A DNA stretch of 32,000 nt from Edaphobacter aggregans (GTDB lineage Bacteria > Acidobacteriota > Terriglobia > Terriglobales > Acidobacteriaceae). How positions within the stretch are numbered: the stretch's first letter is position 1; every line of letters starts with the position of its first letter. The translations under genes were made by a program, and so were the position numbers. The notes beneath the pieces were generated by a model that did not search any database, had not been told where the DNA came from, and saw nothing but the letters and a program-made list of their open reading frames with translations. The stretch is taken from NCBI RefSeq assembly GCF_003945235.1, contig NZ_RSDW01000001.1, positions 4,260,001-4,292,000 on the forward strand, read 5' to 3'. Positions 1 to 22,267 of the stretch are shown here, piece after piece.

Positions 1-669
1 AACTTGGGACACCAATTCCATTTGGCCGTGCAACTTGCTATAGAGCTGGTGCTAACGAACGAATTCGTGGCCAACAGGATCAGCCGAGACGCAAATTTCG
101 CGCAGACAATCTATGACGCGCTTTATTACCCCGTGAATCTCTGGTATACCGACGAGCGGCGGGTGGATTGCTCACAGATCGCCTTGATAGACGGGATTAG
201 TGCAATAACGGGTGAGTCCCTTAGTCTGGAGGAACCCGACCAGGATTTTCTTCATACCCAGGTGAAAGCCGTGCTGGAACTCATTGCCGACTTACCATAT
301 TTGGAGGAACGGCTTCGTGCAGCATTTCGATCGAATCGGTTGGTTGTCGCAGATGGGATTCTTGGCCGACTTCTTGACGCTATCCCGAAGGAGATTCGTC
401 TGTTGAAGGCTGTGCCGGGCGCTGAAGACGTGTATCAGTGGGATTACAATCGCTCCGGCATTCCCTATGAGGCATCTGTCATCCAGGACATTCAGGACAA
501 CAGACCGTTATGGGATGCCTACGCAACCATCGGGGCTCTGGTGAAATCGGTGGCTGAAATAGTTGCTAGGCGCTCTACTGTGGACGAGGTTCTCTCTGGC
601 CTTTCAGAGGCAGAAAGCGTTACTAAATTGTTGGCGGGCCTTTTAATACCGATCGGAGCAAACTCGTGA
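1..669 (+). CDS. hypothetical protein, 5' end outside the window
   Basis: The frame is open from nt 1 (codon aac is in frame with track ORF 4..669), so the TTG at 4 is probably not the real start. Stop TGA 667-669 overlaps the GTG start of the next ORF (GTGA), suggesting translational coupling. No family motif recognised. Confidence 0.5.
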   Translation, partial: NLGHQFHLAVQLAIELVLTNEFVANRISRDANFAQTIYDALYYPVNLWYTDERRVDCSQIALIDGISAITGESLSLEEPDQDFLHTQVKAVLELIADLPYLEERLRAAFRSNRLVVADGILGRLLDAIPKEIRLLKAVPGAEDVYQWDYNRSGIPYEASVIQDIQDNRPLWDAYATIGALVKSVAEIVARRSTVDEVLSGLSEAESVTKLLAGLLIPIGANS

Positions 670-1976
670 CGCCAACCGACCCAATACCTTTCGACCCCGA
701 GTTGCTCGAGGTATATGGAATTATTCGAAGCACTCCCGCCTGGAAGGATGTGAAAGATTCCATGGCGCGCCTGGCCCCATTGCGCCAACCAGCGGCAAAG
801 CCATACGATCAGATGGACCTGGACCGGGACAACGTATTGCGGTATGCGGGAATCCTGCGCAATTCATCTGATTCCATAGCCTATGCGATCTGCTTAGCGG
901 CACACTTAGCCCGGTTTTCCAAGACGCAGGTATTCGAACAACGCCTGAATGAGGGGTTCCAGGCGCTCTCGACAGGGCTGGACCTCCCTGCTCTGGCCGA
1001 GGCCGACACCCGGACAGAGCTGGATCGATGCCTACGCGGAGTATTTCCGAACCAGAAGATTGAGCTGCCTTCGCTGCGTGCACCCGCTCCCGCTCCCGCG
1101 CCAGATGCTCCGCAGCAACCACGCCCAACATCCGAAACCCCCGATGTGGAATCTGCTGCCGCGCCCAGTGGGGACCCAGCCGCAGATGCGTGGCGCAACG
1201 CGCTGGAGAGAGTGCTCACCCAGATTCGGGACATGGACCCGCTGAATATCGATAGCGTGATTCAGAAGGCATACGATGTCTGGCAAGCTAGACTGATGGC
1301 CTTCTTATCGACCCAGCCTGAAGTCCCGCCCGACATCGATTATTTGCGCTGTCGTGCATTGAATCTACCGCCGGGGATGATCCTGCGAGGGCGTCTCAAG
1401 AACGTTAGCCTTCGCGAATGGAACGAGGCCTTCGTCGCCGGCATGTCGGAAACCGGTGTGACTTTCCCGGTTCCCCTTTGGTTTTCACTGGCAGCGCTTG
1501 GTGCGCTGGGGTTCGACGTTCCCCGAGATCTGAGTTCGGTTAAGTCAGCGGAGGAAAACAAAGCGGCTAGCGAGTTCATCTCGAAGATCCCACAGACTAG
1601 TCCCCCAAAAGGTCTGCTCATACTCCGGGTGACCGCCGAGTCACAGACTGCAGGCTGGAACATCTCCACTAGCATGCCAACCCTGATCATCACTCCCACA
1701 GACTTCCTCCGCGAAGGCAAGGCGAACCTGCAGTCTTATTTCCAGCCGAGACTGCACGGAGTCTTGATCGAGGTGGGCCGCGACGAGCAGCCGGCTGCAG
1801 CGTTAGCTCGCGCGAATGGCGCCGCAATCAAGGAAAAGCTTCCATCAGTACGATTGGGATTCTTGATGGCTGCGCAGCCTCAGAACGCAGTCCTGCCGTC
1901 GGGCTATAATAGTTTCGCAATAATGCCTACTGACGCGATGGATGCGTATACAAAGGCGTTCATGTCTACGTCATAA
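666..1976 (+). CDS. hypothetical protein with central Ala/Pro-rich linker
   Basis: 436-aa ORF. GGAG at 655-658 lies 7 nt upstream of GTG 666. GTGA overlap with the upstream ORF. Linker APAPAPAPDAPQQPRP is encoded around 1080-1170. No catalytic or family motif recognised. Confidence 0.55.
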   Translation: MTPTDPIPFDPELLEVYGIIRSTPAWKDVKDSMARLAPLRQPAAKPYDQMDLDRDNVLRYAGILRNSSDSIAYAICLAAHLARFSKTQVFEQRLNEGFQALSTGLDLPALAEADTRTELDRCLRGVFPNQKIELPSLRAPAPAPAPDAPQQPRPTSETPDVESAAAPSGDPAADAWRNALERVLTQIRDMDPLNIDSVIQKAYDVWQARLMAFLSTQPEVPPDIDYLRCRALNLPPGMILRGRLKNVSLREWNEAFVAGMSETGVTFPVPLWFSLAALGALGFDVPRDLSSVKSAEENKAASEFISKIPQTSPPKGLLILRVTAESQTAGWNISTSMPTLIITPTDFLREGKANLQSYFQPRLHGVLIEVGRDEQPAAALARANGAAIKEKLPSVRLGFLMAAQPQNAVLPSGYNSFAIMPTDAMDAYTKAFMSTS

Positions 1977-3028: not shown

Positions 3029-3319
3029 TTGTCCCTCGCTGAGAAAACCATCGACGATATGCTGACAGAACTTGGAATCAAGCATCAGAAGGAATCCCCT
3101 TATCCTGAAGGCCGATTCCGATGTGATTTTCTCGTTGGATCAACCTATATTGAATATTTCGGTTTGCGAGGAAACCCAGAATACGATGTCCGCATACAAG
3201 AAAAGCTGGATCTTTGCCAACGGCTTGGTTTGAGCCTGCTTGTCATCTATCCGGAGGACCTTGTTGATAGTGCCGTCCTCCGACATAGACTGCTAGGGAT
3301 TCAGGGAGGGGCCAATTAG
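3029..3319 (+). CDS. small stand-alone restriction-endonuclease-like (PD-(D/E)xK / Vsr-DUF559-like) protein
   Basis: 96-aa ORF. RFRCDFLVGSTYIEYFGL....K..L.....G..LLVIYPEDL resembles the D-x(n)-(I/V)E-x-x-G core of endonuclease-fold domains. TTG start with no clear SD (alternative ATG at 3059). The function call is tentative. Confidence 0.45.
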   Translation: MSLAEKTIDDMLTELGIKHQKESPYPEGRFRCDFLVGSTYIEYFGLRGNPEYDVRIQEKLDLCQRLGLSLLVIYPEDLVDSAVLRHRLLGIQGGAN

Positions 3320-3339: not shown

Positions 3340-3519
3340 TCAACTAGACGTGAGGAAGACCGCGGTCGTCCTTAAATTCAGAAAGCGATCTTCCATAATT
3401 TCCGTCATGAACCGCAGGAGCATCCGTTCTATCCATTGAACCCAGCCTTTTAAGGAACTGGTGTCGCGAAATGGTGGCGTCCACGTCTCAGCAGACTCCC
3501 GAAGAACTCTCGATGCCAT
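3340..3519 (-). CDS. 59-aa hypothetical protein, below the track cutoff, possible last gene of the lipase cluster
   Basis: Hand translation gives MASRVLRESAETWTPPFRDTSSLKGWVQWIERMLLRFMTEIMEDRFLNLRTTAVFLTSS*. GGAGGA (rc of 3524-3529) lies 4 nt upstream of the ATG at 3519. The ORF starts 37 nt downstream of the 489-aa gene stop. An imperfect palindrome at 3353-3372 overlaps its 3' end. Confidence 0.4.
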   Translation of the reverse strand: MASRVLRESAETWTPPFRDTSSLKGWVQWIERMLLRFMTEIMEDRFLNLRTTAVFLTSS

Positions 3520-3556
3520 ACAGTCCTCCGTTGATTTGGCGATGTCTTGGCAGTGC

Positions 3557-5026
3557 TTAGTTACTTTTTGGAGGAAAGTAAACCGAGATTACGGCGCCTC
3601 TCGGCTTGAATGGCCATATGCGCGGCTTATAGGGCGTTTCGAATCGAAGTTCGATGTCGGTCCCTGGCACTCTCTTTCGCTGATTGTCGAGGACCATCTC
3701 TACTTGAGTGGTAACTCCACAACCATCTGTCTGAATCCCCGCTTTCTTCAGGGTAACCGAGGTAATCTCGAGTGCGAGTTGACAGTCGTTGCCTCCTTGC
3801 GTCGCGACGACCGTGTCCCGTCTCTTGGTGTATAGAGACTTGTCGAGGCGAAAGGGCTTCGGCTGAGAATCTAAATAGCCGCTGTAGCTCTTCATGTAGT
3901 CGGCATAACTCTTTGAGGTGCTGTTACGCGATAGTGCTACTGCCTGATTCAAAGAGATAACCGGAATCGCTGGTCCTTTTGGGTCCGCTGGATTGGGGAT
4001 GCTGCCAGGAACAGGCCCAAACGATTGGGCGATGCTGTCAACGCTTGCTTGGATTGTTGGAATAAGACGCGGTGGAATGTCCTGGCTGACTCCCTTGGGC
4101 GCAGGTGCGCCAGGCGAAGGAAGCGGTTGAGCGAGCCCATTGGCGATCTGATGAAGATACTGTTCGATCATGCCAGGCTGGCCCCACTTTACGCTGTTCG
4201 TCAGAACGGTGTAGTTCTTTTGTAGAGTTTGCAACGAGACGGATTGGTCCACTATAGTCTGGTTGATCGAGCTGATCTGTTTGGATTGTTGTTGAAATTG
4301 CACATTTAGGGTGGCGGAATCGGTTCTCAAGTCACCGAGTTGATCTCCCTGTCCGGTCACCTGTACGTCTAGGCGGCCTAAATCGGCTCCGAATACGTTC
4401 TGCACTTGGATCTGATGCGCGATGTTGTTGAGCGCGGCAGTAACTTTGTCATTGTTAGCAGGCGACTCCTCCATAGACCCCCCACCAGACACGGAGGGCA
4501 GCAAATGGACCGTAGCTCCGCCCACAAGTAGCGCGGCGAGGATAGAAGCGAGCAGCGTAGCATTACTGTGCTTTCCGCCAGCCGAAATCAAAGCATCCCG
4601 AATTTTGCCCAGGATAGCTGCAATTCTGCCTGCCTGCGAGGATCGAACTCGCATTGGTGGGATGCGCAATTCGTTGAGCGCCTCCTTCAAGATTAAGCCG
4701 AACCGTGGGTCATCGACGGCTTGTGCCCAGACCACGCGACCCGCCACGTATGGCGCAAGTGAGTCTGAATAGCCGGGGCATGAATCCTGAATCGCCTTTG
4801 TGATCTTTGCCTTGCCCATTGGCGTCTTGTACAAGTCGTCGTAGATGCTTACGAGCAACGGGTTTGAGGCGATGGTGTCCATCAGATCGTCGTCCGGTAT
4901 ACGGTCACTGGTCAATTTCTCACTGACCAACGCACGAAAATAGTCGTCCGAGGCGGCCCGGTCGGTCCACGGTCTTACTTCTGATTCCTGGATCTCAGGC
5001 ACGTCTGGCATCAGCGGCTTCCCCAT
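3557..5026 (-). CDS. membrane-anchored coiled-coil / Pro-rich protein (TolA/TonB-like layout), function unknown
   Basis: 489 aa. N-terminal ~150-aa soluble part, one hydrophobic helix (ATLLASILAALLVGGATVHLL), a Q/N/L-rich heptad-like region, a Pro-rich stretch (PLPSPGAPAPKG...PVPGSIPNPADPKGPAIPV) and a C-terminal ~130-aa domain. It overlaps the lipase stop (4995-4997) by 32 nt, or by 17 nt if the ATG at 5011 is used, which is preceded by GGGGAA. Confidence 0.7.
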   Translation of the reverse strand: MGKPLMPDVPEIQESEVRPWTDRAASDDYFRALVSEKLTSDRIPDDDLMDTIASNPLLVSIYDDLYKTPMGKAKITKAIQDSCPGYSDSLAPYVAGRVVWAQAVDDPRFGLILKEALNELRIPPMRVRSSQAGRIAAILGKIRDALISAGGKHSNATLLASILAALLVGGATVHLLPSVSGGGSMEESPANNDKVTAALNNIAHQIQVQNVFGADLGRLDVQVTGQGDQLGDLRTDSATLNVQFQQQSKQISSINQTIVDQSVSLQTLQKNYTVLTNSVKWGQPGMIEQYLHQIANGLAQPLPSPGAPAPKGVSQDIPPRLIPTIQASVDSIAQSFGPVPGSIPNPADPKGPAIPVISLNQAVALSRNSTSKSYADYMKSYSGYLDSQPKPFRLDKSLYTKRRDTVVATQGGNDCQLALEITSVTLKKAGIQTDGCGVTTQVEMVLDNQRKRVPGTDIELRFETPYKPRIWPFKPRGAVISVYFPPKSN

Positions 5027-8000
5027 GAGAGTGGTTCAAGATGATCTCTCGGACATCCTTTCGATTCTGAATCCATTCGGCGGCGGTTCCCTTCCAGCCT
5101 CGTGGCGGAGTTGCAATTGGAATAGGCTGTACTGTACCTGGCTGATCGAGATAGTTCTTTAGGCAGCTCGTTGCCGTTTCGCGACCAAGCAAGCGATAGG
5201 CCTCAAACTGCGATTCATCGAACCATTGGTTGATCGTCGTCTCGTGCGGGAACTGTGCATTATCGCGGTCGAAGCTCTTGACGATAACCGAGCTTGCGCT
5301 TGCGACGGCCGGCTTCAGGTACAAAATGGTTCCCGACGAGCCATCGTTGTACTCGATACTGCCGATCGCGTACGAAGAGCGATTAAACTTCGAGTCGCCG
5401 TAGCTGAGTAGTCCGTCCGTGGGCAACGTAATGTTCGCACCAAAGTTGATTTGACATAGTTCCATGGCGTTGACCAGGTCCTCAAAGCGATAGTGAGGGT
5501 CGCAGTCTGCATCGCATAGAATGATTACTTTGCACTTACGGCGAACCAGCTCAAACAGGCCAAGATTCTCAAAATGGCCGCCATCGGAGAGATAGATGTA
5601 CTCACTCTTATCCGTGGCCTGCGCAAACAGTTCGTCGAGCATCGGCTTGAGTCCTGTCTTAGGACCCTCATCACATCTCGTACTGCGGTTGCGCGGATTG
5701 CCGAGCCACCAACCCAAGCGAACGTTGGCCGCTGTCATCAGTGCTGCAACAGCGGGCGAGGTATGGGCTCCTTCGTTCGGGCTCTGCGCCCCTCCTGAAA
5801 TCGCCATCGCGCTGCCTAGCGTAATGCTGTTCGAACTCTCCTGCGAGTCCGTCAGGGAAAGGGCAGGAGTGCCTTTCGAGGAGCAGAAGTCAGTCTTGAT
5901 CAATCCCGATTTTGCCAAAGGATCGTTCGAATCCAGCTGCTCGTCGGGGGAAGGGTAGCGGATATACCCGCAATAAACAGGCGAGAAAATAAAATTCATT
6001 GCCCGCCGTTTCTGCAAATCCAAGTTCCCGCTCTTGGTCACATTGAGAGTGCAATTGATGATAGGAAATGGTCCGTCAAATTTGTTGGATTCTGCTCGTT
6101 GAAGCGGGTCGACCTTTTCACCCTGATCTTCTTCTTGCTTCGCATCGGCAGTCAGCGATGCCATCGTGATGGTGGGTGCGCCGGTGCCTGCGCTCGCCGC
6201 GAGGTAGCACTCAATCAGGCGAAATCGATACACGTTGTGCAGCGATAGCCGGTTGACGTCGATCATCCGGCCCAACACAACAAGAAGGGCGACGGAGACC
6301 GCCAGAAAGATGTACTCCGGGCGTAGCCATACCTTCAATTGTTGGGGGATATAGCCTTCAACAGTCGCTAACAGCAAGTGGTTCAGGCTTGACAAGAGAA
6401 TTAAGAGTCCTAAGAGGAAGACGTACGGCGCAACGCGCGCCAGGAATCCCATGAACTGGTATTGGTCCCCACTAGGTTTCACCCTAACTATCCATGGTGT
6501 GGGATTGGACTCGGACGGAGCGGGCCCCCCAGTCTTTCCACTGTATGCGCTTAGCACGCCACCCACGGTAGTGAGAATCCAGCCCAAAAGAGCCGTAGCC
6601 CCTGGGAGTTTGTAGCCCCCGCGCAGATTGTATAGGTGCGGACCGACCCGCGCCATGAACTCAGGCCACAACAGTGCGAGCGACGCGACTCCGAGCCAAC
6701 CCAGAGTAAGAATGGCGGTGTCTCCCCATATGCGATTCAGCCACTCCTGTGCAGATGATTGAAAGGGTAAAAGAGCCATGCCTGCTGATGCCATTAACAC
6801 ATATGCCAGAAGCAGCAAAAGCGGAGCGGACGCTGCCGATAACAAGAGACCCGTCTCGAAATGATCGCCCAGGTCAAAGAATCGCGCGAGGAGGAAGGAT
6901 GATGCCCAAAAGCACAGCATGCCGATAATACCTGTACATACGAGCGAGACAATGGGTCTCCACCGATCGCTCGATTGAAGCCTCTTCAGCAGGCCCGGGA
7001 ATGCCCCAACCCGGTACGTAAAAAAGACCACGCATAGAAAAGAGATGAGAAAAAATCCCCACGGAATGGCAGGGTGGTAGCCCGAAACATAGTCAAGGCG
7101 TCGGGCGAGGCCCACTCCAACTACAACCGGCCCGAATAGCAGAACAGCAAAGAAAGTAGTAAAGGCGTGCTTTGCCGCCGCTCGTCGTGAAGCCGTGGCG
7201 TCCTTTGGGTTATAGCCTAACCCTGAGGGGAAAAGCATTATGAATAGTCCCGCTCCAGCGAAGAGTCGGATGCGCCACGCTGTACTAATCCAGTGAGGAT
7301 CCTCAGGAAGTCGCCAACTATAAGACTGAAGGCGACTAGCCTGCTTATCAAGACCATCGGTAAGAGATTTGAGCATCTTCAGGGCCGACCGCGGAAGTGC
7401 CTGAGCATCATCAAGAATCGGTAGGTCAGTGACGATACTCTGCACGACTTCGTTGACAGCTTTCGATTGTCTTTCTTCCGCCGATAGTACCTCTCCACAG
7501 GGTGGAACGTGTGCGGTACCTTCGTGTAGTTGGCCACTGGCAATAGATAGAGGAAACCAGCGGCAAAGATCATTCTTCACGGATTCCAGCGTTGCTACTG
7601 CCTCTGGATTGGGTCTTCCGTTGGAGCCGAGAATCTGCTCGTATCCCTTGCTGATACTGTTTCCGACCTCATTCATTGCGCGTGTTGTCGCTTGGTCCAC
7701 CTTAAGATCCGGAATGCAATCTATATCTGATATCGACTTACAGGCCGCCAGCTCCGCCGAGGTAAGCTTGGCTTTAAGATCGGCAAGAGACGCTTTCACT
7801 ACCCATCCTTCGCCCGGGTAGTAGGGACTCTTGTCTAGAAAGGTTCGCATCTTGTCTTCCAGCACACTGCGGGGCACGTCTGGAGATTGACTCGAACCCG
7901 ATTTCTGTCTTAGCTCAAGCTCGTTTCTCAGAGCCGTCAATGCCGTCTCAACGCTCTGGTCCACATAGAGAGAGGGTTTCGTGCGGAACGCTTCGAGGTG

Positions 8001-8798
8001 ATTGATTTTTTCGAGGAGCAGTTTCTCTTCAGGCGATACTGAATCCGGTTTCATTTGTTTGCTCGATTGTGCGGAGGCCATTGCCGCTTGAAGCTCAAGC
8101 GTCTGTCGGACGACCGCTCCAAACGCATTATCGCGGTCATCATCGAAGGTTCCAGTATGCCCAATACCCTTCAATTCTTCTCCGACATCACGCCGTAGTT
8201 GTAGATTGAGGCTGTTCGCTGCCTTGCGTGCATATTCTCCTGAGGTCATCTTGAAGAGGTCTCGCGCGATATAGGGAGCAACTACCAGGATCAAGGCCAG
8301 GAGGGCGACAAAGAGAAGGTTAGGGAGCAGACGGAGCACATATGCGGCGACTGCCGTCCATACGTCGCTGCTCATCAGACCGCGCTGCGGTGTTAGATAG
8401 CTGCTGTAGCGGCGTAGATGGGTGACGGGAAGCTGATCTCGGTAACGATCTGCTGCATTACCCTGCTTATTCTCGTCGGCCAACGCTTTCGCCACATGGC
8501 CAATTCCATCCTTCCGAATCCATGAAGCAAGCCAAGAATTGATATAACTCCCACCCGATACGGAAGAGATATATCCAATCCGATGTAATAGACCGAAAGA
8601 CGCGAAAGCCTGGAGAACTCCGAGGTTAAAGGTGGCACTACGTATTCCTCCCCCTGAGAAAGCCACGCCAATCGCTCGGTCCGGCGGCGCTTGCGGGTCA
8701 CGCCGTTTACGAACGTTCTCGAACCAGGTTTGCTCTCCAGAGAGCAATATCGACTCGATGGATTTGAGATCCTGCTCCGTACCACCCCGTTCTTCCAT
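4995..8798 (-). CDS. patatin/cPLA2-like phospholipase with a very large membrane-embedded insertion
   Basis: 1267 aa. Motifs: FSGGGIRS (G49-G-G-x-R53), SVSGGS (Ser81 codon 8556-8558) and LSDGGHFENLG (Asp1072 codon 5583-5585). About 10 hydrophobic 20-30-aa segments and a ~320-aa charged helical region lie between them. GGAG lies 9 nt upstream of the ATG at 8798. Confidence 0.88.
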   Translation of the reverse strand: MEERGGTEQDLKSIESILLSGEQTWFENVRKRRDPQAPPDRAIGVAFSGGGIRSATFNLGVLQAFASFGLLHRIGYISSVSGGSYINSWLASWIRKDGIGHVAKALADENKQGNAADRYRDQLPVTHLRRYSSYLTPQRGLMSSDVWTAVAAYVLRLLPNLLFVALLALILVVAPYIARDLFKMTSGEYARKAANSLNLQLRRDVGEELKGIGHTGTFDDDRDNAFGAVVRQTLELQAAMASAQSSKQMKPDSVSPEEKLLLEKINHLEAFRTKPSLYVDQSVETALTALRNELELRQKSGSSQSPDVPRSVLEDKMRTFLDKSPYYPGEGWVVKASLADLKAKLTSAELAACKSISDIDCIPDLKVDQATTRAMNEVGNSISKGYEQILGSNGRPNPEAVATLESVKNDLCRWFPLSIASGQLHEGTAHVPPCGEVLSAEERQSKAVNEVVQSIVTDLPILDDAQALPRSALKMLKSLTDGLDKQASRLQSYSWRLPEDPHWISTAWRIRLFAGAGLFIMLFPSGLGYNPKDATASRRAAAKHAFTTFFAVLLFGPVVVGVGLARRLDYVSGYHPAIPWGFFLISFLCVVFFTYRVGAFPGLLKRLQSSDRWRPIVSLVCTGIIGMLCFWASSFLLARFFDLGDHFETGLLLSAASAPLLLLLAYVLMASAGMALLPFQSSAQEWLNRIWGDTAILTLGWLGVASLALLWPEFMARVGPHLYNLRGGYKLPGATALLGWILTTVGGVLSAYSGKTGGPAPSESNPTPWIVRVKPSGDQYQFMGFLARVAPYVFLLGLLILLSSLNHLLLATVEGYIPQQLKVWLRPEYIFLAVSVALLVVLGRMIDVNRLSLHNVYRFRLIECYLAASAGTGAPTITMASLTADAKQEEDQGEKVDPLQRAESNKFDGPFPIINCTLNVTKSGNLDLQKRRAMNFIFSPVYCGYIRYPSPDEQLDSNDPLAKSGLIKTDFCSSKGTPALSLTDSQESSNSITLGSAMAISGGAQSPNEGAHTSPAVAALMTAANVRLGWWLGNPRNRSTRCDEGPKTGLKPMLDELFAQATDKSEYIYLSDGGHFENLGLFELVRRKCKVIILCDADCDPHYRFEDLVNAMELCQINFGANITLPTDGLLSYGDSKFNRSSYAIGSIEYNDGSSGTILYLKPAVASASSVIVKSFDRDNAQFPHETTINQWFDESQFEAYRLLGRETATSCLKNYLDQPGTVQPIPIATPPRGWKGTAAEWIQNRKDVREIILNHSHGEAADARRA

Positions 8799-9177
8799 AG
8801 TTGATTACTCCGTATATTTCTGCATTCCTATTCGCCGCTGGCAGCTTCAGACATGCCTTATCGTCGTCACTGCCCTCCATGATCTTCTGGCACTTTCCAC
8901 TGCGAGGCGGGTACTCGCCGAAAGGACATAGGGCGTCCGGGGTAGCCCAGTAGGAAGCGCTCATGGAGCTACGCGGGCCCAAATGGGCTATCTTCCCACC
9001 AAGGTAAAGAATCACAGGAAACAACATGCCAATGATGACGACGGTGAAAACGAAGCCGAAAGTATGTTCCTTGGATCTGATCTGAGACTGGACGTGGGAC
9101 GATAGTTCGCCTCCTGGGATAAGAGCGCGGCCCACTTCTGCTGAGTTCCGGAAATGGGAACACCTCTCTTGTGTCAA
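8707..9177 (-). CDS. possible small single-pass membrane protein
   Basis: 156-aa ORF with a TTG start and no clear SD. One hydrophobic helix (FGFVFTVVIIGMLFPVILYLGG). The last 92 nt overlap the well-supported lipase start in another frame, so this call is uncertain. Confidence 0.3.
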   Translation of the reverse strand: MTQERCSHFRNSAEVGRALIPGGELSSHVQSQIRSKEHTFGFVFTVVIIGMLFPVILYLGGKIAHLGPRSSMSASYWATPDALCPFGEYPPRSGKCQKIMEGSDDDKACLKLPAANRNAEIYGVINYGRTGWYGAGSQIHRVDIALWRANLVRERS

Positions 9178-9226
9178 CGTAGCTCGGCGTTCACGGCAAC
9201 ACCGCTAGGCGTCACTCTTCGTTGGG

Positions 9227-10852
9227 CTATTTAGGCGCTAAGATGCTGTTTAGTGCCGACAGGTCATAACTGAAGCCAAACTGCCCTTTCCAGTCACTGT
9301 CGCTAAGCAGATCAGTTTTATTAGACCATTTAACAGCAACGGGGATAGAGGCGCCCTTACCAATGTTGAAGACCAACTTCGTCTGAGCGATACTCAACCA
9401 ACCGGGTGTACTAGTAAAGACCTGTGAGTTGGATGGAACCGAGATGTTAGTTCCGGGCACTACATTTGCTACGGTTATATTGAGGACATTGGCGGTGTAC
9501 TGATACTGTCCATAACCAGCAAGACTAAAAATCGCGCGTGGAGCACTCTTGTCTTTGCCGAAAGGGTGGTCATACTCTCCAGTGAACTGATAATCCTTAA
9601 CTTTGCCGTACTTCGCGCCTGGCGGAATTGTTGCGAACCATGAGCCGGCTACGTTGAACGTAAGCTGGTCGCCGCTCTTCTGCCACACATATGCGAAGAC
9701 GGCGGTCGCATCGTGTGTGGCTGGTTTGCCAGTAGGTGTGGAATAGGTATAGCTAAGCGTCGCGAAAGTGCCACGTGCTTGTTGAAGAATATTATCGCGA
9801 AGGGTTTTCAATTTAGCTAGGTCCGCACCAACCGCTACAATATTCTGCTCATAGTTCGGCCCCGCGTTCGACTTCAATGCTGCGACGTACACCGTCATGT
9901 ATGCAATGAAGTCGTCCACGAACTTGTCAAAATTATTTTCAGCCTCGTCCTGTTCTGCGGCATGCTGCCAGTCAGCACGTGCTGCAACGACTTTCGAATC
10001 ACCATTCACTTTGTCGGAATTTGGAAATGCCTTCTGGTAGTCCGTGTAAAGCTGGTTTGATGCGTTTGTAATTGCGGTTTGGGTATCCTTATCGCCGATT
10101 GCTTTGTTCCAAGCACTAACGAATTTCGTTGAGGTCGGGTTATACCGCCGGTTGATGGTTCTGCTCACACTGAGCGAACTGAACGACACATTATTTGATG
10201 GGATAAGAACACTGAGGATGTCAGTGGGTGTAGTAGAAGTCGCCTGGCCTGTGGTAGATGCAGCAGCCGAGCCGCTCTGGGCAACATTGAACGTGGCGGC
10301 AAGGGTGAAAGGCTGCAGTATTTTATCTGCGGTCTTGGGTCCTTGCGCTGTGGCAGCGAAATTATCACCCGAAAGATAACGGCGCAGACCATTCATGTTT
10401 GCCCTCGCCGTCAGAGTAGTACCGTTAACTGTTTGGGTGAAAGCGCCCGATTCAGCTGCTAGCGATATTAGGTCAGTCGTCGTGGGCTTTGCCCCCAGGC
10501 TGGTCGATCCACTTGCACTCGTGTTCGCTCCGGCTTGGGGAACCGCTGCCTTCGTGGAAATAACTTGTGCTACTTGGTTAGCTGCGGCTTGTAACACAGT
10601 TGCTCCGAAGGCCGCGTCGAAAAGAACACTTACAGTTGGTATTGGCTGGTTAAGAGGGTCCAAGAGGGTAGGTTCTGCGCCGCCCTTCGCAAATCTTTGG
10701 TCTTTAAACTCTTTCTGAAGTATTCCGCAAAATGAGCTGGCGATCTTTCCTTTCTGGTCGCAAGTGCTTTGTGGGGATTGAGCTGATGCCCCAGAACTTT
10801 GCAGAGATACTAATAACGCGAAAGCCAACTGCAGTCTGACGGGTAACTTCAT
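9227..10852 (-). CDS. secreted protein with beta-barrel-like C-terminal region, function unknown
   Basis: From the second Met the N-terminus is MKLPVRLQLAFALLVSLQSSGASA|QSP, a classic signal peptide with an AxA site, and GAGG lies 6 nt upstream of the ATG at 10852. The track start at 10897 is the alternative. The last ~190 aa show alternating hydrophobic strands (AIFSLAGYGQYQY, KLVFNIG, IPVAVKWSN, WKGQFGFSYDL). Confidence 0.7.
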   Translation of the reverse strand: MKLPVRLQLAFALLVSLQSSGASAQSPQSTCDQKGKIASSFCGILQKEFKDQRFAKGGAEPTLLDPLNQPIPTVSVLFDAAFGATVLQAAANQVAQVISTKAAVPQAGANTSASGSTSLGAKPTTTDLISLAAESGAFTQTVNGTTLTARANMNGLRRYLSGDNFAATAQGPKTADKILQPFTLAATFNVAQSGSAAASTTGQATSTTPTDILSVLIPSNNVSFSSLSVSRTINRRYNPTSTKFVSAWNKAIGDKDTQTAITNASNQLYTDYQKAFPNSDKVNGDSKVVAARADWQHAAEQDEAENNFDKFVDDFIAYMTVYVAALKSNAGPNYEQNIVAVGADLAKLKTLRDNILQQARGTFATLSYTYSTPTGKPATHDATAVFAYVWQKSGDQLTFNVAGSWFATIPPGAKYGKVKDYQFTGEYDHPFGKDKSAPRAIFSLAGYGQYQYTANVLNITVANVVPGTNISVPSNSQVFTSTPGWLSIAQTKLVFNIGKGASIPVAVKWSNKTDLLSDSDWKGQFGFSYDLSALNSILAPK

Positions 10853-10920
10853 AAACGACCTCACTGGAATGGGTTTAAGACCGTGGGCTGTGAGCATTTG
10901 AGCGCATGGGGTGGACGCTA

Positions 10921-11277
10921 CTAAGCGCCTAAGATGTTGGGGCTCCAGATAGCCAAACCGCCAAAAAATTCGATATCACCTTCGAGTTCAAGCGGCGGCT
11001 TACCTACCGCACTTGGCGGCTGCTGGGCAGTCGCAAATCCATCCGTAGAGTTAGGCGAAAACAGAGTAATCTGCAGAAGATTGTTGCCAGCCAGGATGGT
11101 CAGATCAAATGTTTTCCCATCAACTTTGATCGGGACTGGGATTGGTCCGTTAGCGTTCGTTCCGTATAGCACGCTGACGATGCTGATGACGGTTGTTGGA
11201 TCATCGGGGACGATTTCGATCGTCTCGACTTTCCCTGTTGTGCTTTGCAGGTCACCTGGGACTTGCTGGAGTGCCAT
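10921..11277 (-). CDS. 118-aa beta-rich hypothetical protein, first gene of the lipase cluster
   Basis: GGAGAAAG lies 6 nt upstream of the ATG at 11277. No signal peptide and no recognised motif. The plus-strand ORF 10934..11293 is its shadow. Confidence 0.55.
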   Translation of the reverse strand: MALQQVPGDLQSTTGKVETIEIVPDDPTTVISIVSVLYGTNANGPIPVPIKVDGKTFDLTILAGNNLLQITLFSPNSTDGFATAQQPPSAVGKPPLELEGDIEFFGGLAIWSPNILGA

Positions 11278-11904
11278 GGCTTTCTCCGATTGAAATTACT
11301 CTGCTTGAAAATAGGGTTGTAAGAATTTGAGACGCAATCCGGAAAAAGGGAGGAGTACTCGGTCTAATATGACGACCTAGTCCGCGTGGGCACATAAGGT
11401 GATCACAATGAGCTTCACGTTTCTCCGTAAATCCGAAGTCCCAAATCAATGGCGATGCATTTGCTGTCTGTCAAACAAGAGAACGAGGCAAACGAGGCAT
11501 TTCCTTTTGTAAAAAAAAAGAAAAAGTGTGGAACATTCCTAGTGTCTGCAAAAACTGTTCGATCACCTTCGGAGTGGGTAGCTACTGTGGTGGGGTCCAG
11601 CCGCCGTGAGTATTTATTGGTTTGCCATCCTCAACGAAAAATCGCTCGGCTACTAAGCCGACGTCCCAATAGTGCGAGCGGCAGTTCCTTCACTTGACAC
11701 CGTTGCAGTGCAAATTACGGTGCTCCTGGTTATCGACAATCCTTCATCTGCTAAGCGAAGGCCGCTTACTTGATACCGGAGAGGTGCGATGGGCCGGAGA
11801 AATCAACCGAGCTTGAGCGCTGGCAAACCTGCGTAAACCAAAAAAATTAGCCACAAATGAGGCCACTCGTCCTACAATGATTTCGTCAACCACTAAGCAA
11901 TCGA

Positions 11905-12552
11905 ATGACCACGAACCCGCTCGCTGCTGCAGAGATCGTCAAAGCATGCTTGGAGTCCGAGAATGAGACGCCGTGGACGACATTCGTTCAGTATTTCCAG
12001 CCTCTGATTGCGTCTAGTGTCTCCCGCGTTCTCCGACGCTACGGTCACGCGAACCCGTCTTTGGCCGATGACCTAATCCAAGAGACCTATCTTCGCCTTT
12101 GCAGAGATAATTGCCGAGTCCTCCGGGACTTTCAGGCGAAGCATGACGAAGCCATCTTTGGCTATATCAAGGTCATCGCCACATCAGTTGCGCTAGATCA
12201 CTTTCGCGCCCGCGCCACTCACAAGCGCCGGGGCGAAGTCGAAGACGACGGCACAAATCTCGAAGGCAGCACAGCTTCTTCCACCATTGAGCAAAGCTTG
12301 CTTCTCAAAGAACTCGATCGACGTCTGGCATCCACTGAGAATGAACGCGACCGTACGATTTTCTGGCTCTACTACCGTCAAGGTTATACCGCACGAGACA
12401 TTGCAGCGGTTCCCCAATTTAGGCTCACGCAAAAGGGTGTCGAAAGCTGTATCTACCGCCTCACACAATCTCTCCGCGATGCTGTCAGCAGTAAAGGTCC
12501 GGGTTTTACAAAAGGATTGCCGCCTCAAAATACGTTAGGAGTCATGAAATGA
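11905..12552 (+). CDS. ECF-type sigma-70 family RNA polymerase sigma factor
   Basis: 215 aa. Region 2-like DDLIQETYLRLCRD and region 4 HTH-like YRQGYTARDIAAV...LTQKGVESCIYRLTQSLR. Stop TGA 12550-12552 overlaps the next ATG (ATGA). Confidence 0.85.
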   Translation: MTTNPLAAAEIVKACLESENETPWTTFVQYFQPLIASSVSRVLRRYGHANPSLADDLIQETYLRLCRDNCRVLRDFQAKHDEAIFGYIKVIATSVALDHFRARATHKRRGEVEDDGTNLEGSTASSTIEQSLLLKELDRRLASTENERDRTIFWLYYRQGYTARDIAAVPQFRLTQKGVESCIYRLTQSLRDAVSSKGPGFTKGLPPQNTLGVMK

Positions 12553-16082: not shown

Positions 16083-17096
16083 ATGCACATGCATTACTCG
16101 CGTCGCTCAATTTTGCGCAAAGCTGCCCTTGTATCAGCCGCCGGTGTAGCCTACACTAATCCGCTTATTCTCCTTGCCCAGAGTCCGGCAAAACGAGCAG
16201 CATCTACTCCCCCTCCTCCGTTTCAACCAGGAATTCGTATTTTCTTTTCGGGGTCTTGGCTCTTCTGTTCAGAGAATAATAACCCGGGCTGGATGAGAGC
16301 GATCGCTCAGGACATGCCGCGAGTTCCACATACCTTTGCCTATGGTGTGTGGACGCCTGGTTGGAATGACGCAACCACAAAGTCACTACACTCGAACTCA
16401 AATCCAAGTGGTGGCCAACCGGGCATCATTCCACATAAGGTCAAGGTGTCCGTGGGCTCCAAGCCTTTCGGGTCAAGCTTTACTACTGTCAATGACCTGT
16501 TTGCTTATACTGCCTGCACAGACCCTTTTACATACCTGCCAAGCAAAGATATAAAGTACTCCGTTGACTTCAACGCACGTAATCTTCGGGTCATCTCTGT
16601 TCCTATTCCATCAAGTATCATTCCGGCTGCCTTCCTCAGATCCGCATCGATTAGGAACCCTCAAAAGCTTCTTTATACGTTGCCTCAAGGGTGCGTGTTG
16701 TCCCAGTCTGGAGTCGCGACAACGCATATCTTTGACTACCCTGCAGCAACTTCCCTGACCCTCACGCTAAACACTGGTACCGCCGACACTGCGAGCCAGC
16801 AGGATCATTATCACTTTCACACAACTGCGATCTCAGACACACCGTTCGACCACGCTCCGATGATGTTCGATAATCTGCTGGGCCTCATTAGAGGCTTCGA
16901 CCAGAACAACCTAGGATTGCTCAACCCCAATCCAGAATCTATTGACATAGGAGACAACGTCCCAGCGAGTGTTTCGGGGGACGAATTGGAGATTACCTCT
17001 GCTGGTGCCTCAGCTACCAAACCCAAGGAAGTTACCTATTCGACTCACGCAAGACTCGCTACCTGCGCGGGGGGAGCCCTCGCGCTGGGCGATTGA
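16083..17096 (+). CDS. Tat-signal exported protein, function unknown
   Basis: 337 aa. The N-terminus MHMHYSRRSILRKAALVSAAGVAY fits the twin-arginine S-R-R-x-(F/I)-L-K pattern. GGAG at 16075-16078. Starts 18 nt after the CHAT gene stop. Confidence 0.7.
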   Translation: MHMHYSRRSILRKAALVSAAGVAYTNPLILLAQSPAKRAASTPPPPFQPGIRIFFSGSWLFCSENNNPGWMRAIAQDMPRVPHTFAYGVWTPGWNDATTKSLHSNSNPSGGQPGIIPHKVKVSVGSKPFGSSFTTVNDLFAYTACTDPFTYLPSKDIKYSVDFNARNLRVISVPIPSSIIPAAFLRSASIRNPQKLLYTLPQGCVLSQSGVATTHIFDYPAATSLTLTLNTGTADTASQQDHYHFHTTAISDTPFDHAPMMFDNLLGLIRGFDQNNLGLLNPNPESIDIGDNVPASVSGDELEITSAGASATKPKEVTYSTHARLATCAGGALALGD

Positions 17097-19513: not shown

Positions 19514-19954
19514 ATGGCGATCCCGAGCCGCACCGCCAGACCCGGCACCTACTTCATCACCACAGCCACTCACAACCGCCGCCGACTCTTTCAGGTCGAG
19601 CGCAACGCCGCCCTCCTCCTCGAAACCATCGACCATTACCGCACCAGCTATCTCCTGCACGCCTACGTCGTCATGCCCGACCATCTGCACCTACTCATCA
19701 CCCCAACCGACATCACTCTCGAGCGAACCATGCAGCTCATCAAGGGCGGCTACTCCCACCGCCTCGCCTCCAAACTCCCCGTCTGGCAGCGAGGCTTTAC
19801 CGACCACCGCATCCGCGACGACGCCGACTACAACGTCCGCCGCAACTACCTTCATCAAAACCCGGTCCCGCCCGCCTCTGCGAAAGCACCGAATCCTACC
19901 CATTCTCTTCAGCCAATCCAAAAGTTGCGGCTCGACGAGTACCTCAGCGGCTGA
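19514..19954 (+). CDS. REP-associated tyrosine transposase (RAYT, IS200/IS605 TnpA-like Y1 HUH enzyme), C-terminus probably frameshifted
   Basis: 146 aa. HUH motif in VVMPDHLHLLITP. Catalytic Tyr context RRNYLHQNPV. The expected continuation (ARLCESTESYPFSSA) is found in the -1 frame from ~19870. Confidence 0.8.
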   Translation: MAIPSRTARPGTYFITTATHNRRRLFQVERNAALLLETIDHYRTSYLLHAYVVMPDHLHLLITPTDITLERTMQLIKGGYSHRLASKLPVWQRGFTDHRIRDDADYNVRRNYLHQNPVPPASAKAPNPTHSLQPIQKLRLDEYLSG

Positions 19955-20045: not shown

Positions 20046-20414
20046 TTATTCGAGCGAAGCTCGAACCGCGTTGCCCAAACGCAATTCAGCCACTAGCTGC
20101 TTGAGTTTTGCGTTCTCCTGTTCAAGCTCGTACAGCCTCTGCATCCGCTCCTCGATCTTGGTGCGGTAAGTCTCGCCGCGATCTTGCGAAGCATCGACTT
20201 GCTTGGAGTTGCGCGAGCGCATTCCAAGCATCCGTGCGTGAACATTGGGACGGTATCCGAGCCTGGCCGCAGCCTCTTGAACACGCTCCCTCGTGGCCAG
20301 CTTCATGGCCTCCACGCCCGGCGCATTATTAAGCACGATCGAGATAGTCGCCGACGACAGGCCAAGATGCTCAGAAAGAGTCTTGAGCGTTACGGGTTTA
20401 GCGGTGTCCGTCAT
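20046..20414 (-). CDS. LacI-family HTH DNA-binding domain protein lacking the sugar-binding domain, with a C-terminal coiled coil
   Basis: From Met39 of the track ORF the sequence is MTDTAKPVTLKTLSEHLGLSSATISIVLNNAPG...ATRERVQEAAARLGYRPNVHARML, a typical LacI/PurR N-terminal HTH plus hinge. It is followed by EERMQRLYELEQENAKLKQLVAELRL. The start could also be the ATG at 20432. The last codons are encoded by REP element X'. Confidence 0.7.
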   Translation of the reverse strand: MTDTAKPVTLKTLSEHLGLSSATISIVLNNAPGVEAMKLATRERVQEAAARLGYRPNVHARMLGMRSRNSKQVDASQDRGETYRTKIEERMQRLYELEQENAKLKQLVAELRLGNAVRASLE

Positions 20415-20474
20415 TCCATTAGACCAGTCCATCCAACAGACAGTACCGATACGGTACCCATGGATTAATCGACA

Positions 20475-20490
20475 AGACAAACGTTTGTCT
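20475..20490. promoter_or_regulatory. Candidate LacI-type operator: perfect 16-bp palindrome AGACAAACGTTTGTCT
   Basis: Perfect palindrome with a central CG, 61 nt upstream of the ATG at 20414. It fits the general LacI/PurR-family operator shape (..AAACGTTT..). It is flanked by a second inverted pair, aatcga/tcgatt. Confidence 0.5.
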
Positions 20491-20599
20491 AAATCGATTG
20501 AATTCAATATAAGTACTGTCGTTTCCATGTGTCAAGAGAGGGAATCGGAAGGTATCTATTTCAGTGACGAATGGGGCGGGTGGCCCATATCTGAGCCGG

Positions 20600-21487: not shown

Positions 21488-22267
21488 CTACCGCTCCCGT
21501 TTTCCGAGATGGTAGCTAATACCGATTCTCGTGGCTAGCTCATCCATTCCCGGATTGCTTGCCGCTAAGTAGCCATTCGAAACATGAAAAAATACGAACG
21601 GATCTATGCGCAGGTCGACCCGTTCCGACATTCTGAACAGAAAGCCGGCGTCAACCTGAACGTTGAAGTTGGTGTAGCTCGCTTTTGGCGAAAACGCTTT
21701 TTGGGCAAAGACTGCTGCCCCTAGCTTGCCGGTCATGTAGGGCCTGACGGCCTTATTGTTCCGCCACAGAAAGCGAAAGCCGAACGGGGAAATCGCAAAC
21801 CCAGGCACCAGCTCCTGGTTGGGGCTTTTGGCATTCCCCCAAAAATCGGAGACGGCGGGTTGGCTGAGAATGACAATAGGAATAACCTCCACCACATAGT
21901 CGACCTGGGATTTCAGCAAATGACCCCAGCTATGACGGTCGTACTCCACCCCTACCGTCCAGGCTTTGCAACGTACAGTAGCGCTAAATACTCTATAGTC
22001 GCCATCCGGAATCATCGTCGTCACGGAGATCTCACTCTCCACAGGCTGCTTGATAGGGGGCGGCTTCGTTATCAAAACATCCGATTCCGCCGGGATGGTT
22101 GTCTCCCGCGAGCTATTCACCACACTTTCCTGGGATAGCGCAGTTTGCGGGGCAAGAAGGCAGAGCGCAGCCAAAATGGCAACGTAATTAACGCCAAAGC
22201 TGCAGTCGAAGCGACGATCACTCCGTCGCAGGATGAAGGAAGACCCGAGGAATCGATGAGTAGTCAA
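21488..22267 (-). CDS. acyloxyacyl hydrolase / lipid A deacylase (PagL-like) outer-membrane protein
   Basis: Signal-like segment VAILAALCLLAPQTALSQ. C-terminal FFHVSNGYLAASNPGMDELATRIGISYHL carries the H-x-S-N-G motif characteristic of the PagL family. The exact start is uncertain. Confidence 0.65.
   Translation of the reverse strand: MTTHRFLGSSFILRRSDRRFDCSFGVNYVAILAALCLLAPQTALSQESVVNSSRETTIPAESDVLITKPPPIKQPVESEISVTTMIPDGDYRVFSATVRCKAWTVGVEYDRHSWGHLLKSQVDYVVEVIPIVILSQPAVSDFWGNAKSPNQELVPGFAISPFGFRFLWRNNKAVRPYMTGKLGAAVFAQKAFSPKASYTNFNVQVDAGFLFRMSERVDLRIDPFVFFHVSNGYLAASNPGMDELATRIGISYHLGKRER

Follow-up and report, generated by a model that had tools for sequence, protein, structure and literature searches.

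The subject of this report is a 32-kb window of the Edaphobacter aggregans genome (contig NZ_RSDW01000001.1, positions 4,260,001 to 4,292,000; positions below refer to this whole stretch) and, within it, a gene for a large patatin-like phospholipase, hereafter the lipase, together with its neighbors. Six open reading frames (ORFs) on the minus strand had been read, in an original prediction made from the sequence alone, as one apparatus spanning the cell envelope. All six ORFs are present with the coordinates, spacings and ribosome-binding sites that had been described (Table 1), but they do not constitute a single conserved machine: two gene pairs, one encoding the 118-aa and 541-aa proteins and the other the lipase and the 489-aa protein, are inherited independently in the great majority of loci. 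A divergent pair of genes for an extracytoplasmic function (ECF) sigma factor and an anti-sigma factor, which had not been part of the prediction, provides the best lead as to how the genes may be connected.

Table 1. Genes and candidate promoter motifs of the locus, in window coordinates.
Feature	Position	Strand	Remarks
59-aa ORF	3340-3519	-	GGAGGA ribosome-binding site
489-aa ORF	3557-5026	-	Predicted bitopic partner of the lipase
Lipase ORF, 1267 aa	4995-8798	-	Patatin/cPLA2-like
156-aa ORF	8707-9177	-	TTG start
P2, candidate ECF-type promoter	9049-9072	-	AAGGA-N15-CGTT; distance to the lipase start codon 251 nt (upstream)
541-aa ORF	9227-10852	-	Alternative start at 10897 gives 556 aa
118-aa ORF	10921-11277	-	GGAG ribosome-binding site; beta-rich; without signal peptide
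P1, candidate ECF-type promoter	11482-11506	-	AAGGA-N16-CGTT; distance to the 118-aa start codon 205 nt (upstream)
ECF sigma factor, 215 aa	11905-12552	+	Pfam Sigma70_r2, Sigma70_ECF; divergent from the cluster
Third motif copy	12512-12536	+	AAGGA-N16-CGTT; sigma 3' end, 13 nt before the anti-sigma start codon
Anti-sigma factor, 1171 aa	12549-16064	+	Start overlaps the sigma stop by 4 nt
337-aa protein	16083-17096	+	Tat-like signal SRRSIL; no known domain; follows the CHAT gene

The six open reading frames

Read in the direction of transcription, the ORFs follow each other at 68 nt (23 nt from the alternative start of the 541-aa ORF), at 49 nt, with an overlap of 92 nt, with an overlap of 32 nt, and finally at 37 nt. 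The start of the 489-aa gene lies five residues later in the deposited record, which reduces its overlap with the lipase gene from 32 to 17 nt.

Homologues were found for four of the six ORFs. The lipase has more than 1367 matches, most of them 900-1400 aa in length, and the 541-aa protein is represented by 120 homologue clusters, none of which carries a Pfam domain. For the 489-aa protein, a word-indexed search returned two matches and an exhaustive HMMER search about 20 representatives among 1.84 billion proteins. Of the 44 genome loci with a 541-family gene, at least 24 have a relative of the 118-aa ORF immediately upstream of that gene. While these four can be retained as genes, the 156-aa and 59-aa ORFs, which had been counted with them, found no such support. 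No homologue of the 156-aa ORF was present in any of the fetched loci, and its exact sequence is missing from the protein collection. Its sequence runs into the lipase start and includes the candidate promoter P2, and the locus tags of the record leave no room for it: EDE15_3562 denotes the 489-aa gene and EDE15_3564 the 541-aa gene, so that the lone tag between them must belong to the lipase. The 59-aa ORF forms a singleton cluster and is annotated in the GenBank record alone, with no WP_ accession; in the closest relative, locus L001, the partner gene has no similar ORF after it. Judged by these comparisons, the 156-aa ORF is probably not a gene, and the 59-aa ORF, a doubtful gene, is probably to be set aside likewise. 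With the 156-aa ORF discounted, a spacer of 428 nt therefore separates the 541-aa gene from the lipase gene.

All six proteins were scanned with Pfam, NCBIfam and PADLOC-DB v2.0.0. A borderline patatin match stood alone, in agreement with the earlier statement that no family besides that of the lipase is recognizable. No PADLOC match was better than E = 0.02 for any of the six proteins, and weak matches to HpiC1, SlyX, SlaB, GajA and RT_UG37 were discarded as noise. Similarly, HlyD/BSH, MCE, OEP and POTRA domains did not appear in the Pfam and NCBIfam scans. Rfam and tRNA scans of the window returned nothing.

The lipase and its partner gene

The lipase is 100% identical to the NCBI entry "patatin-like phospholipase [Edaphobacter aggregans]". 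Its N-terminal half (residues ~40-145) contains a GGGxR motif at positions 49-53 and the predicted nucleophile S81 in the context SVSGG, and its C-terminal half (~850-1210) contains D1072-G-G; the putative catalytic serine and aspartate are about 990 residues apart. Among 23 aligned homologues, G49-G50-G51, R53, S81, D1072 and G1073 are invariant and G1074 is kept in at least 90%. Between the two halves, crude hydropathy delineates about ten hydrophobic segments (146-184 and nine within 510-851), which fits a multi-pass enzyme and bears out the earlier description of a membrane lipase. Besides the window protein, only its two closest relatives have the insert at residues 185-509.

Pfam Patatin (PF01734) scores 26.9 bits against the lipase, just below its cut-off of 27.7, with residues 46-122 alone being aligned; precomputed PF01734 matches exist on many of the homologues. 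PLA2_B (PF01735) remains below its cut-off of 23 (12.9 bits, E = 0.038), and a profile of the lipase family found a sole match in the PDB, cPLA2-delta (E = 0.0023, ~85 residues). The patatin oxyanion loop G-G-x-R/K is present as G49-G50-G51-I-R53 and the patatin aspartate motif D-G-[AG] as D1072-G1073-G1074. The elbow around S81 reads S-V-S-G-G, a Ser taking the place of the first Gly of the patatin motif G-x-S-x-G, and resembles the cPLA2 elbow, which has the form G-x-S-G-S. The GGGxR loop, the small-x-S-G-G/S elbow, the distant D-G-G and a large insertion between the halves are all shared with cPLA2 (PLA2_B); unlike cPLA2, however, the lipase has no C2 domain, and its insertion is a predicted transmembrane bundle and not a cap. 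On these grounds, the lipase is identified from its sequence as a patatin/cPLA2-like hydrolase with a catalytic domain that is predicted to be split by a multi-pass membrane domain. Since a signal peptide is missing, a cytoplasmic location of the N-terminal half is the likelier reading.

CapV, known from the cyclic oligonucleotide-based antiphage signaling system (CBASS), is a soluble protein of ~350 aa that is activated by cyclic nucleotides. Like CapV, which is thought to kill through degradation of the membrane of its own cell, the lipase is a patatin-type Ser-Asp enzyme occurring in defense islands. It differs from CapV in that its clade (~900-1400 aa) is split by the multi-pass insert, has a constant bitopic partner and comes with no cyclase: a cGAS/DncV-like cyclase was found neither among the scanned window ORFs nor in the Pfam tables of related loci. 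The PADLOC model for CapV did not match any of the six proteins.

The partner in question is the 489-aa protein. In all 11 further informative loci, without exception, a member of its family is encoded immediately downstream of the lipase, the junction varying from a 20-nt overlap to a 30-nt gap. Identities to the window protein range from 25 to 74% (74% in L001, 46% in L002, ~25% in L130); the remaining loci are L047, L129, L131/L132 (one locus), L133-L136 and L137, where the partner was recognized by exhaustive jackhmmer only (3e-40). The 489-aa protein is therefore described here as the obligate partner of this lipase clade. The wider membrane-patatin family (31-40% identity) was represented by 80 loci, in which no partner was found with a hidden Markov model (HMM) of the 489-aa family (p489) or with exhaustive jackhmmer, apart from a lone weak match on the opposite strand in L079, which argues that the partner is clade-specific.

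The partner had been described as a protein with a transmembrane segment (TM), a coiled coil and a Pro-rich region, and this architecture was recovered. According to the alignment and an AlphaFold2 (AF2) model, a conserved helical N-domain (residues 10-125; predicted local distance difference test score, pLDDT, 84-94; motifs YFRGLVSxKLG and DPRFDLVLK) is followed by a TM at 158-176 with positive charges on its N-side, a long helix at 193-282, a disordered Pro-rich linker and a C-terminal beta domain at 403-483 (pLDDT ~84), in which C415 and C436 are invariant. As this invariant Cys pair follows the TM, the sequence suggests that the C-domain is extracytoplasmic and disulfide-bonded. In such a bitopic topology, the N-domain would be cytoplasmic and the coiled-coil stalk and the C-domain would be periplasmic. 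Foldseek gave no PDB match at E <= 0.001 for the 489-aa model. In an Angelobacter metagenome-assembled genome (MAG; L020), two ORFs of ~215 aa (4031-4672 and 4980-5651, plus strand) match the p489 profile at 1e-24 to 1e-28; they lie 4-5 kb upstream of a 541-family gene, and no lipase is present on the available DNA.

Elsewhere, the lipase and its partner are accompanied by Azaca ZacA/ZacB (L047), by Old and a type III methyltransferase with ResIII (L130), by AbiU (L131), by MzaB/MzaC, a DNA methylase and Vsr (L134), by a NACHT-HEAT protein (L135), or by VirB4/VirB3/TrbC, an integrase and a second membrane patatin (L136). A strong defense system recognized by PADLOC lies within ~5 kb in half of the eight pair loci with usable flanks, and one pair locus, L136, lies on a conjugative element. 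These neighborhoods are the signature of an accessory, mobile conflict cassette. Scans of 2.9 million viral contigs returned no p489 relative and one distant patatin, and being essentially negative they indicate that the cassette is not phage-borne. In the literature that was searched, this pair of lipase and partner is not described, and it is a candidate for a new defense cassette.

Further patatins and lipases were encountered close to several of these pairs. In L136 (1895-9695), a patatin of 924 aa, a partner of 477 aa and a second patatin of 1171 aa stand in tandem beside type IV secretion genes and an integrase; in L002 (3-863), the C-terminus of another patatin lies directly upstream of the lipase. 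Downstream of the distant pair in L137 (13305-15412, plus strand), an SH3_3 protein and a protein with a Tle1-like lipase catalytic domain of the type VI secretion system are encoded. In the window itself, a 96-aa ORF at 3029-3319 (plus strand) matches the C-terminal part of two PADLOC candidates, PDC-S69 (1.2e-6) and HEAT_CxxC_PD-DExK (1.8e-4), and is probably the remnant of a defense-candidate gene. The NACHT/HEAT protein beside the pair in L135 matches the same PADLOC model as this ORF.

The 118/541 pair, the sigma factor and a common motif

The 541-aa protein begins with MKLPVRLQLAFALLVSLQSSGASA/Q, by inspection a Sec signal peptide, which is kept across the family alignment. Members of the family also share two cysteines close to the N-terminus of the mature protein, a PTTTDLISLAAESGAFT motif and a C-terminal region of high conservation that includes a strand. 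The AF2 model (pLDDT 67) comprises 12 beta-strands, a confident helical bundle at 242-359 and N-terminal helices. Of the two features that had been ascribed to the protein, the signal peptide was confirmed by inspection; the barrel-like C-terminus is echoed in a Foldseek list dominated by outer-membrane barrels (~190 aligned columns), but no PDB match reached E <= 0.001, the best having an E of 0.024 and a TM-score of ~0.2. A search of BFVD, made with the 541-aa model only, gave one marginal and uninformative match (TM-score ~0.1). The C-terminus of the family, ...GQFG(F/I/L)SYDLSAL-x8-10, has a non-aromatic tail and thereby departs from the aromatic beta-signal. The 541-aa protein is possibly an outer-membrane protein or barrel.

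The genome scan for the 541 family yielded 44 loci, all from Acidobacteriota (Terriglobia, Acidobacteriaceae, Angelobacter, Sulfotelmatobacter and similar), and the named organisms among the 541 clusters belong to the same phylum (Sulfotelmatobacter, Angelobacter, Acidobacteriaceae). By sequence inspection, the surroundings are mostly housekeeping synteny with genes of acyl-CoA dehydrogenase, GlpX, ATP-grasp and RelA/SpoT types, and both the lipase and the 489-aa protein are absent from all 44 loci. The 118/541 pair is known from Terriglobia only. We propose that the 118/541 genes are an otherwise independent envelope gene pair of this class that has come under the same sigma factor in a few genomes; the pair may be an envelope component co-opted into the regulon. 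In loci of the Angelobacter type (L008-L012, L016), inspection showed genes of the HlyD/MacA-like adaptor, ABC ATPase and MacB/FtsX-permease types on the same strand after the 118 and 541 genes, an adjacency that could reflect lineage synteny or hint at an efflux-related role of the 541 family. A link of the pair to efflux pumps through MacA/MacB was dropped, as the MacB-like genes occur at varied positions and on varied strands.

Directly after the gene of the divergent ECF sigma factor comes that of an anti-sigma factor with the zinc-binding motif H34-IQQ-C38-EA-C41 (HxxxCxxC), one hydrophobic segment or TM at 174-202, TPR repeats and a caspase-like CHAT domain at 903-1167 (Pfam 4.4e-39) that contains GH at 1039-1040 and C1083. 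The zinc-binding anti-sigma (ZAS) domain is probably cytoplasmic and the TPR-CHAT part periplasmic. The CHAT protein is annotated with 791 aa in RefSeq (WP_185827227.1) and with 1171 aa in GenBank (RSL18011.1). As the ZAS motif, the TM and the overlap with the sigma stop are present in the long form only, the short RefSeq call hides the anti-sigma nature of the protein.

Homologues of the sigma factor were found in three further loci, at identities of 72% (L015), 43% (L067) and 36% (L130), and the HxxxCxxC motif is also present in the anti-sigma homologues of all three. In L015, an Edaphobacter MAG, the genes for sigma factor, CHAT protein and a homologue of the 337-aa protein, which has 35% identity and the same position after the CHAT gene, lie opposite a membrane protein and the 118 + 541 pair. 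In L067, the sigma factor and the N-terminus of an anti-sigma factor lie opposite a secreted 458-aa protein whose gene overlaps that of a membrane patatin by 4 nt.

The architecture of the sigma/anti-sigma pair in the window resembles the one solved for DdvS and DdvA. In Myxococcus xanthus, DdvS is an ECF sigma factor that controls a defense island with CBASS and type III-B CRISPR, and self-cleavage mediated by the CHAT domain of DdvA is proposed to start regulated proteolysis (PMC11506125). DdvA-like proteins have been reported in Myxococcota and one Comamonas only (PMC11506125). As in DdvS/DdvA, an ECF sigma gene precedes that of an anti-sigma factor with an HxxxCxxC domain, one TM and a TPR-CHAT part with a His/Cys dyad, and a patatin-type phospholipase is found among the neighboring genes, the CBASS effector of the Myxococcus island being CapV-like. 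The differences lie in the host, which is an acidobacterium, in the targets, which are neither CBASS nor CRISPR, and in the distant locus L130, where a separate C11 peptidase gene replaces the fused CHAT domain. A genetic link between an ECF sigma factor and a CHAT-domain protease is also known from the ECF54 group, in which ECF sigma genes are linked to CHAT, subtilase or carboxypeptidase genes and which has been described without an anti-sigma factor (PMC8999054); unlike in ECF54, the CHAT protein of the window itself carries the ZAS motif and a TM.

Comparison of the intergenic regions adjacent to the sigma genes for common gapped words led to the motif AAGGA-N16-CGTT. In the 32-kb window, three copies with N15 or N16 compare with 0.44 expected, and all of them lie within 9.0-12.5 kb and have the correct orientation. 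The motif points toward a target operon in all four sigma loci: in addition to P1 and P2 of the window, L015 has one copy ahead of the gene for the membrane protein and another ahead of the 118-like gene, L130 has a copy 127 nt before its 110-aa ORF, and L067 has an AAGGG variant 70 nt before the 458-aa gene. Among 747 kb of 541-family loci, nine copies were counted, three of which fall in L015, the sole such locus with this sigma factor; ~1 Mb of patatin loci contained 24 copies against ~15 expected. Among these 24 are copies that precede the lipase by 330 nt in L001 and by 117 nt in L131/L132. The copy at the 3' end of the sigma gene recurs, as AAGGA/G-N16-CGTT, before the anti-sigma start in L015 (7281), L130 (1492) and L067 (1146), each on the minus strand, and could be an anti-sigma promoter or reflect a coding constraint. 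The classical ECF pattern AAC-N14-19-[C/G]GT produced no consistent sites, and scans for sigma-70 promoters and terminators were not above chance and placed no terminator in the 428-nt spacer ahead of the lipase gene. AAGGA-N15/16-CGTT is a good candidate for the promoter of this sigma factor, in which case the window would contain two sigma-dependent units. A T-rich run (ctttttcttttttttt) is situated immediately upstream of P1 (11515-11535, minus strand).

The only other locus in which both pairs were found with this sigma factor is L130, a distant metagenomic contig of 121 kb with unrelated flanks. One strand carries genes for a C11 peptidase, a 334-aa protein with ZAS domain and TM, and the ECF sigma factor; on the other follow a 110-aa ORF, a 585-aa protein of the 541 family, the lipase (38% identity) and the partner. 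The assignment of the 585-aa protein is based on an HMM E-value of 2.9e-20 and on hhalign (probability 98.7%, E = 2e-16), whereas the 110-aa ORF may or may not belong to the 118 family (hhalign probability 29%, E = 6e-4). The other window proteins that were compared had no match in this contig. The 334-aa anti-sigma factor (1-1450, minus strand) has two HxxxCxxC motifs and a TM and is followed by the separate gene of the C11 (clostripain-type) peptidase, which looks like a swap of caspase-fold proteases in place of the fused CHAT domain.

The expectation of a conserved four- or six-gene unit was accordingly contradicted by the loci that were compared. Sought in related genomes, the set as a whole largely failed to co-occur, with the 541-family loci all lacking the lipase and 10 of 12 lipase-pair loci lacking the 541 family, but the two pairs each recurred on their own. 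The gene order small ORF / 541 family / lipase / 489 family, for its part, is conserved, but in one distant locus only. It can nevertheless be argued that the adjacency is not mere chance, because of the layout of L130, the presence of the sigma factor beside each pair separately, and the common motif. The sequences are consistent with membrane and envelope proteins that are plausibly co-regulated and do not appear to form a conserved multi-gene apparatus.

In the remainder of the window, an IS200-type Y1 transposase gene (19514-19954), a LacI HTH fragment (20046-20528, minus strand) and genes for NIPSNAP and DUF1330 proteins were noted, as well as a PagL-like lipid A 3-O-deacylase at 21488-22267 (minus strand). 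The GC content is ~0.50-0.55 over the cluster vs 0.62-0.66 over the Lhr helicase gene at 25050-29483.

Interpretation and rival explanations

The reading that we favor, with slightly better than even confidence, is that a sensor of the DdvS/DdvA-like sigma/anti-sigma kind controls two effector operons and that the lipase pair is a candidate new defense cassette. The locus would then consist of three layers, namely the sensor pair, two target units on the opposite strand (118 aa + 541 aa; lipase + 489 aa), each behind a motif, and the enzymatic effector. For these layers we infer sensing, regulation, topology, enzymatic activity and a defense role along the following lines. A periplasmic, envelope or phage-derived signal would lead to inactivation or loss of the anti-sigma factor, thereby releasing the sigma factor, and the free sigma factor would transcribe both units. 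The partner would gate the lipase, either holding it in check or activating it; its cytoplasmic domain may contact the catalytic halves of the lipase, while the stalk and the Cys-Cys domain would reach into the periplasm. Once released, the inner-membrane lipase would hydrolyze phospholipids of its own cell, with an abortive-infection-type or membrane-remodeling outcome. A role in abortive infection or conflict is favored over housekeeping lipid turnover because of the defense-island and mobile-element contexts of the pair.

In a more far-reaching version, which we regard as unlikely, the whole block, from the sigma and anti-sigma factors through the 118-aa and 541-aa proteins to the lipase and its partner, would be one envelope immune module with two tiers of control: the periplasmic caspase-like sensor would free the sigma factor and so arm the cell at the level of transcription, and the periplasmic Cys-Cys domain of the partner would sense the attack and unleash a suicide lipase in the inner membrane. 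If true, the lipase and its partner would be a previously undescribed anti-phage system and the block the first defense module with DdvS/DdvA-type regulation outside Myxococcota.

A number of observations weigh against a sigma-controlled defense locus. The 541 family is found in only two of the 12 lipase-pair loci, and on the available DNA the sigma factor, too, is present in only two of 12. The motif is a post-hoc pattern; it is missing from the spacer between the 541-like gene and the lipase in L130, and its copy at the sigma 3' end overlaps a weakly conserved C-terminal peptide, [KE]-G-hydrophobic-x-P-x3-L. Neither the anti-sigma factor (E <= 0.01) nor the sigma factor (E <= 0.001) had a match in the PDB sequence copy, where a DdvA/DdvS entry was assumed to be present. 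In view of this missing sequence similarity to solved structures, the likeness to DdvA/DdvS is to be understood as a resemblance in design and not as demonstrated homology. As to the lipase, crude hydropathy did not show which side of the membrane the active site faces. Finally, the flanks of the window contain no known defense system, the 96-aa fragment with its weak PADLOC match standing alone, and the role in defense is an argument from association, since no PADLOC model covers the six proteins.

Among the rival explanations, the most doubtful is the original idea that the 541-aa protein in the outer membrane, the 489-aa protein across the periplasm and the lipase in the inner membrane form one trans-envelope complex for lipid trafficking, remodeling or vesiculation. 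Such a complex would share with MacAB-TolC, Lpt or Mla/MCE only the general idea of a component in the inner membrane, a protein that bridges the periplasm and a barrel in the outer membrane. In its favor, the three proteins are predicted at suitable locations, the order 541 family / lipase / 489 family is repeated in L130, and outer-membrane barrels dominate the Foldseek lists of the 541-aa model. However, none of the 44 genome loci with the 541 family, most of them in housekeeping synteny, contains the lipase or the partner, just as the lipase pair usually occurs without a 541-family gene, and the spacer between the pairs holds a promoter-like motif of its own. Furthermore, no barrel match at E < 0.001 was obtained against solved structures, the C-terminus of the 541-aa protein is non-aromatic, and the adaptor-like protein of the prediction is at odds with the scans, in which no adaptor, MCE, HlyD or OEP domain was detected. 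In the autotransporter PlpD, a patatin domain is joined to a barrel, whereas the genes of the barrel candidate and the lipase are inherited independently here. The opposite view, a chance neighborhood in which both pairs and the sigma/anti-sigma genes came together in a variable island of low GC content without any functional connection, is rather unlikely. It would explain why each pair occurs by itself much more often than alongside the other, why the GC content is below that of the nearby Lhr gene with an IS200 transposase gene adjoining, and why the lipase pair is clearly mobile. Yet chance would hardly account for a layout that L130 repeats in order and orientation at 25-38% protein identity, with no match there for the other window proteins that were compared, for a sigma factor that recurs separately beside the 541 pair (L015) and beside another membrane patatin (L067), or for a motif that has a fixed spacing at the targets in four sigma loci and background frequency elsewhere.

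Two further explanations accept a connection of the genes and differ in the function assigned to the lipase. If the locus were a housekeeping envelope-stress regulon, the lipase and its partner would remodel or recycle phospholipids, with no suicidal or anti-phage role, and the 541-aa protein would reinforce the outer envelope. Regulons of this type are classically controlled by ECF sigma factors (reviewed in PMC8999054), most Terriglobia have the 541 pair in housekeeping surroundings, and 10 kb away lies the gene of a PagL-like lipid A deacylase; the explanation is nonetheless unlikely, given that the lipase pair is patchy and rare (~20 partner representatives) and that its occurrence on a conjugative element and beside Azaca, Mza, AbiU, Old and restriction genes follows an accessory-conflict pattern. 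In a toxin/immunity or toxin/antitoxin pair, by comparison, the lipase would be a toxin directed at its own cell or at competitors, and the 489-aa protein a neutralizer kept by addiction. The strict coupling of the often overlapping, fast-evolving genes, their presence on mobile elements and the Tle1-like lipase gene near the pair in L137 are in line with this possibility, which we consider quite improbable: about ten membrane segments are unlike an exported effector, the scans of the six proteins detected no marker domain of a secretion system, and the cytoplasmic domain, stalk and periplasmic domain of the partner resemble a sensor or regulator more than a simple inhibitor.

What the analysis would add is a membrane-split patatin with an obligate bitopic partner, and a DdvS/DdvA-style sensor in Acidobacteriota with a candidate promoter. 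It also illustrates that gene order in one genome need not imply a six-part machine. If the favored reading of a sigma-controlled lipase cassette holds, the lipase would represent a new architecture of defense phospholipases, in which the enzyme is permanently embedded in the very membrane to be destroyed, raising the question of how it is silenced, and in which it depends on a rare, fast-evolving bitopic partner. Sensors composed of a sigma factor and a caspase-like anti-sigma factor, characterized so far for one Myxococcus island only, would be used more widely, with sensor proteases that can be swapped (CHAT or C11) while controlling effector operons. The motif AAGGA-N16-CGTT would then tie unannotated genes of Acidobacteriota into a regulon, in a phylum with very few characterized circuits.

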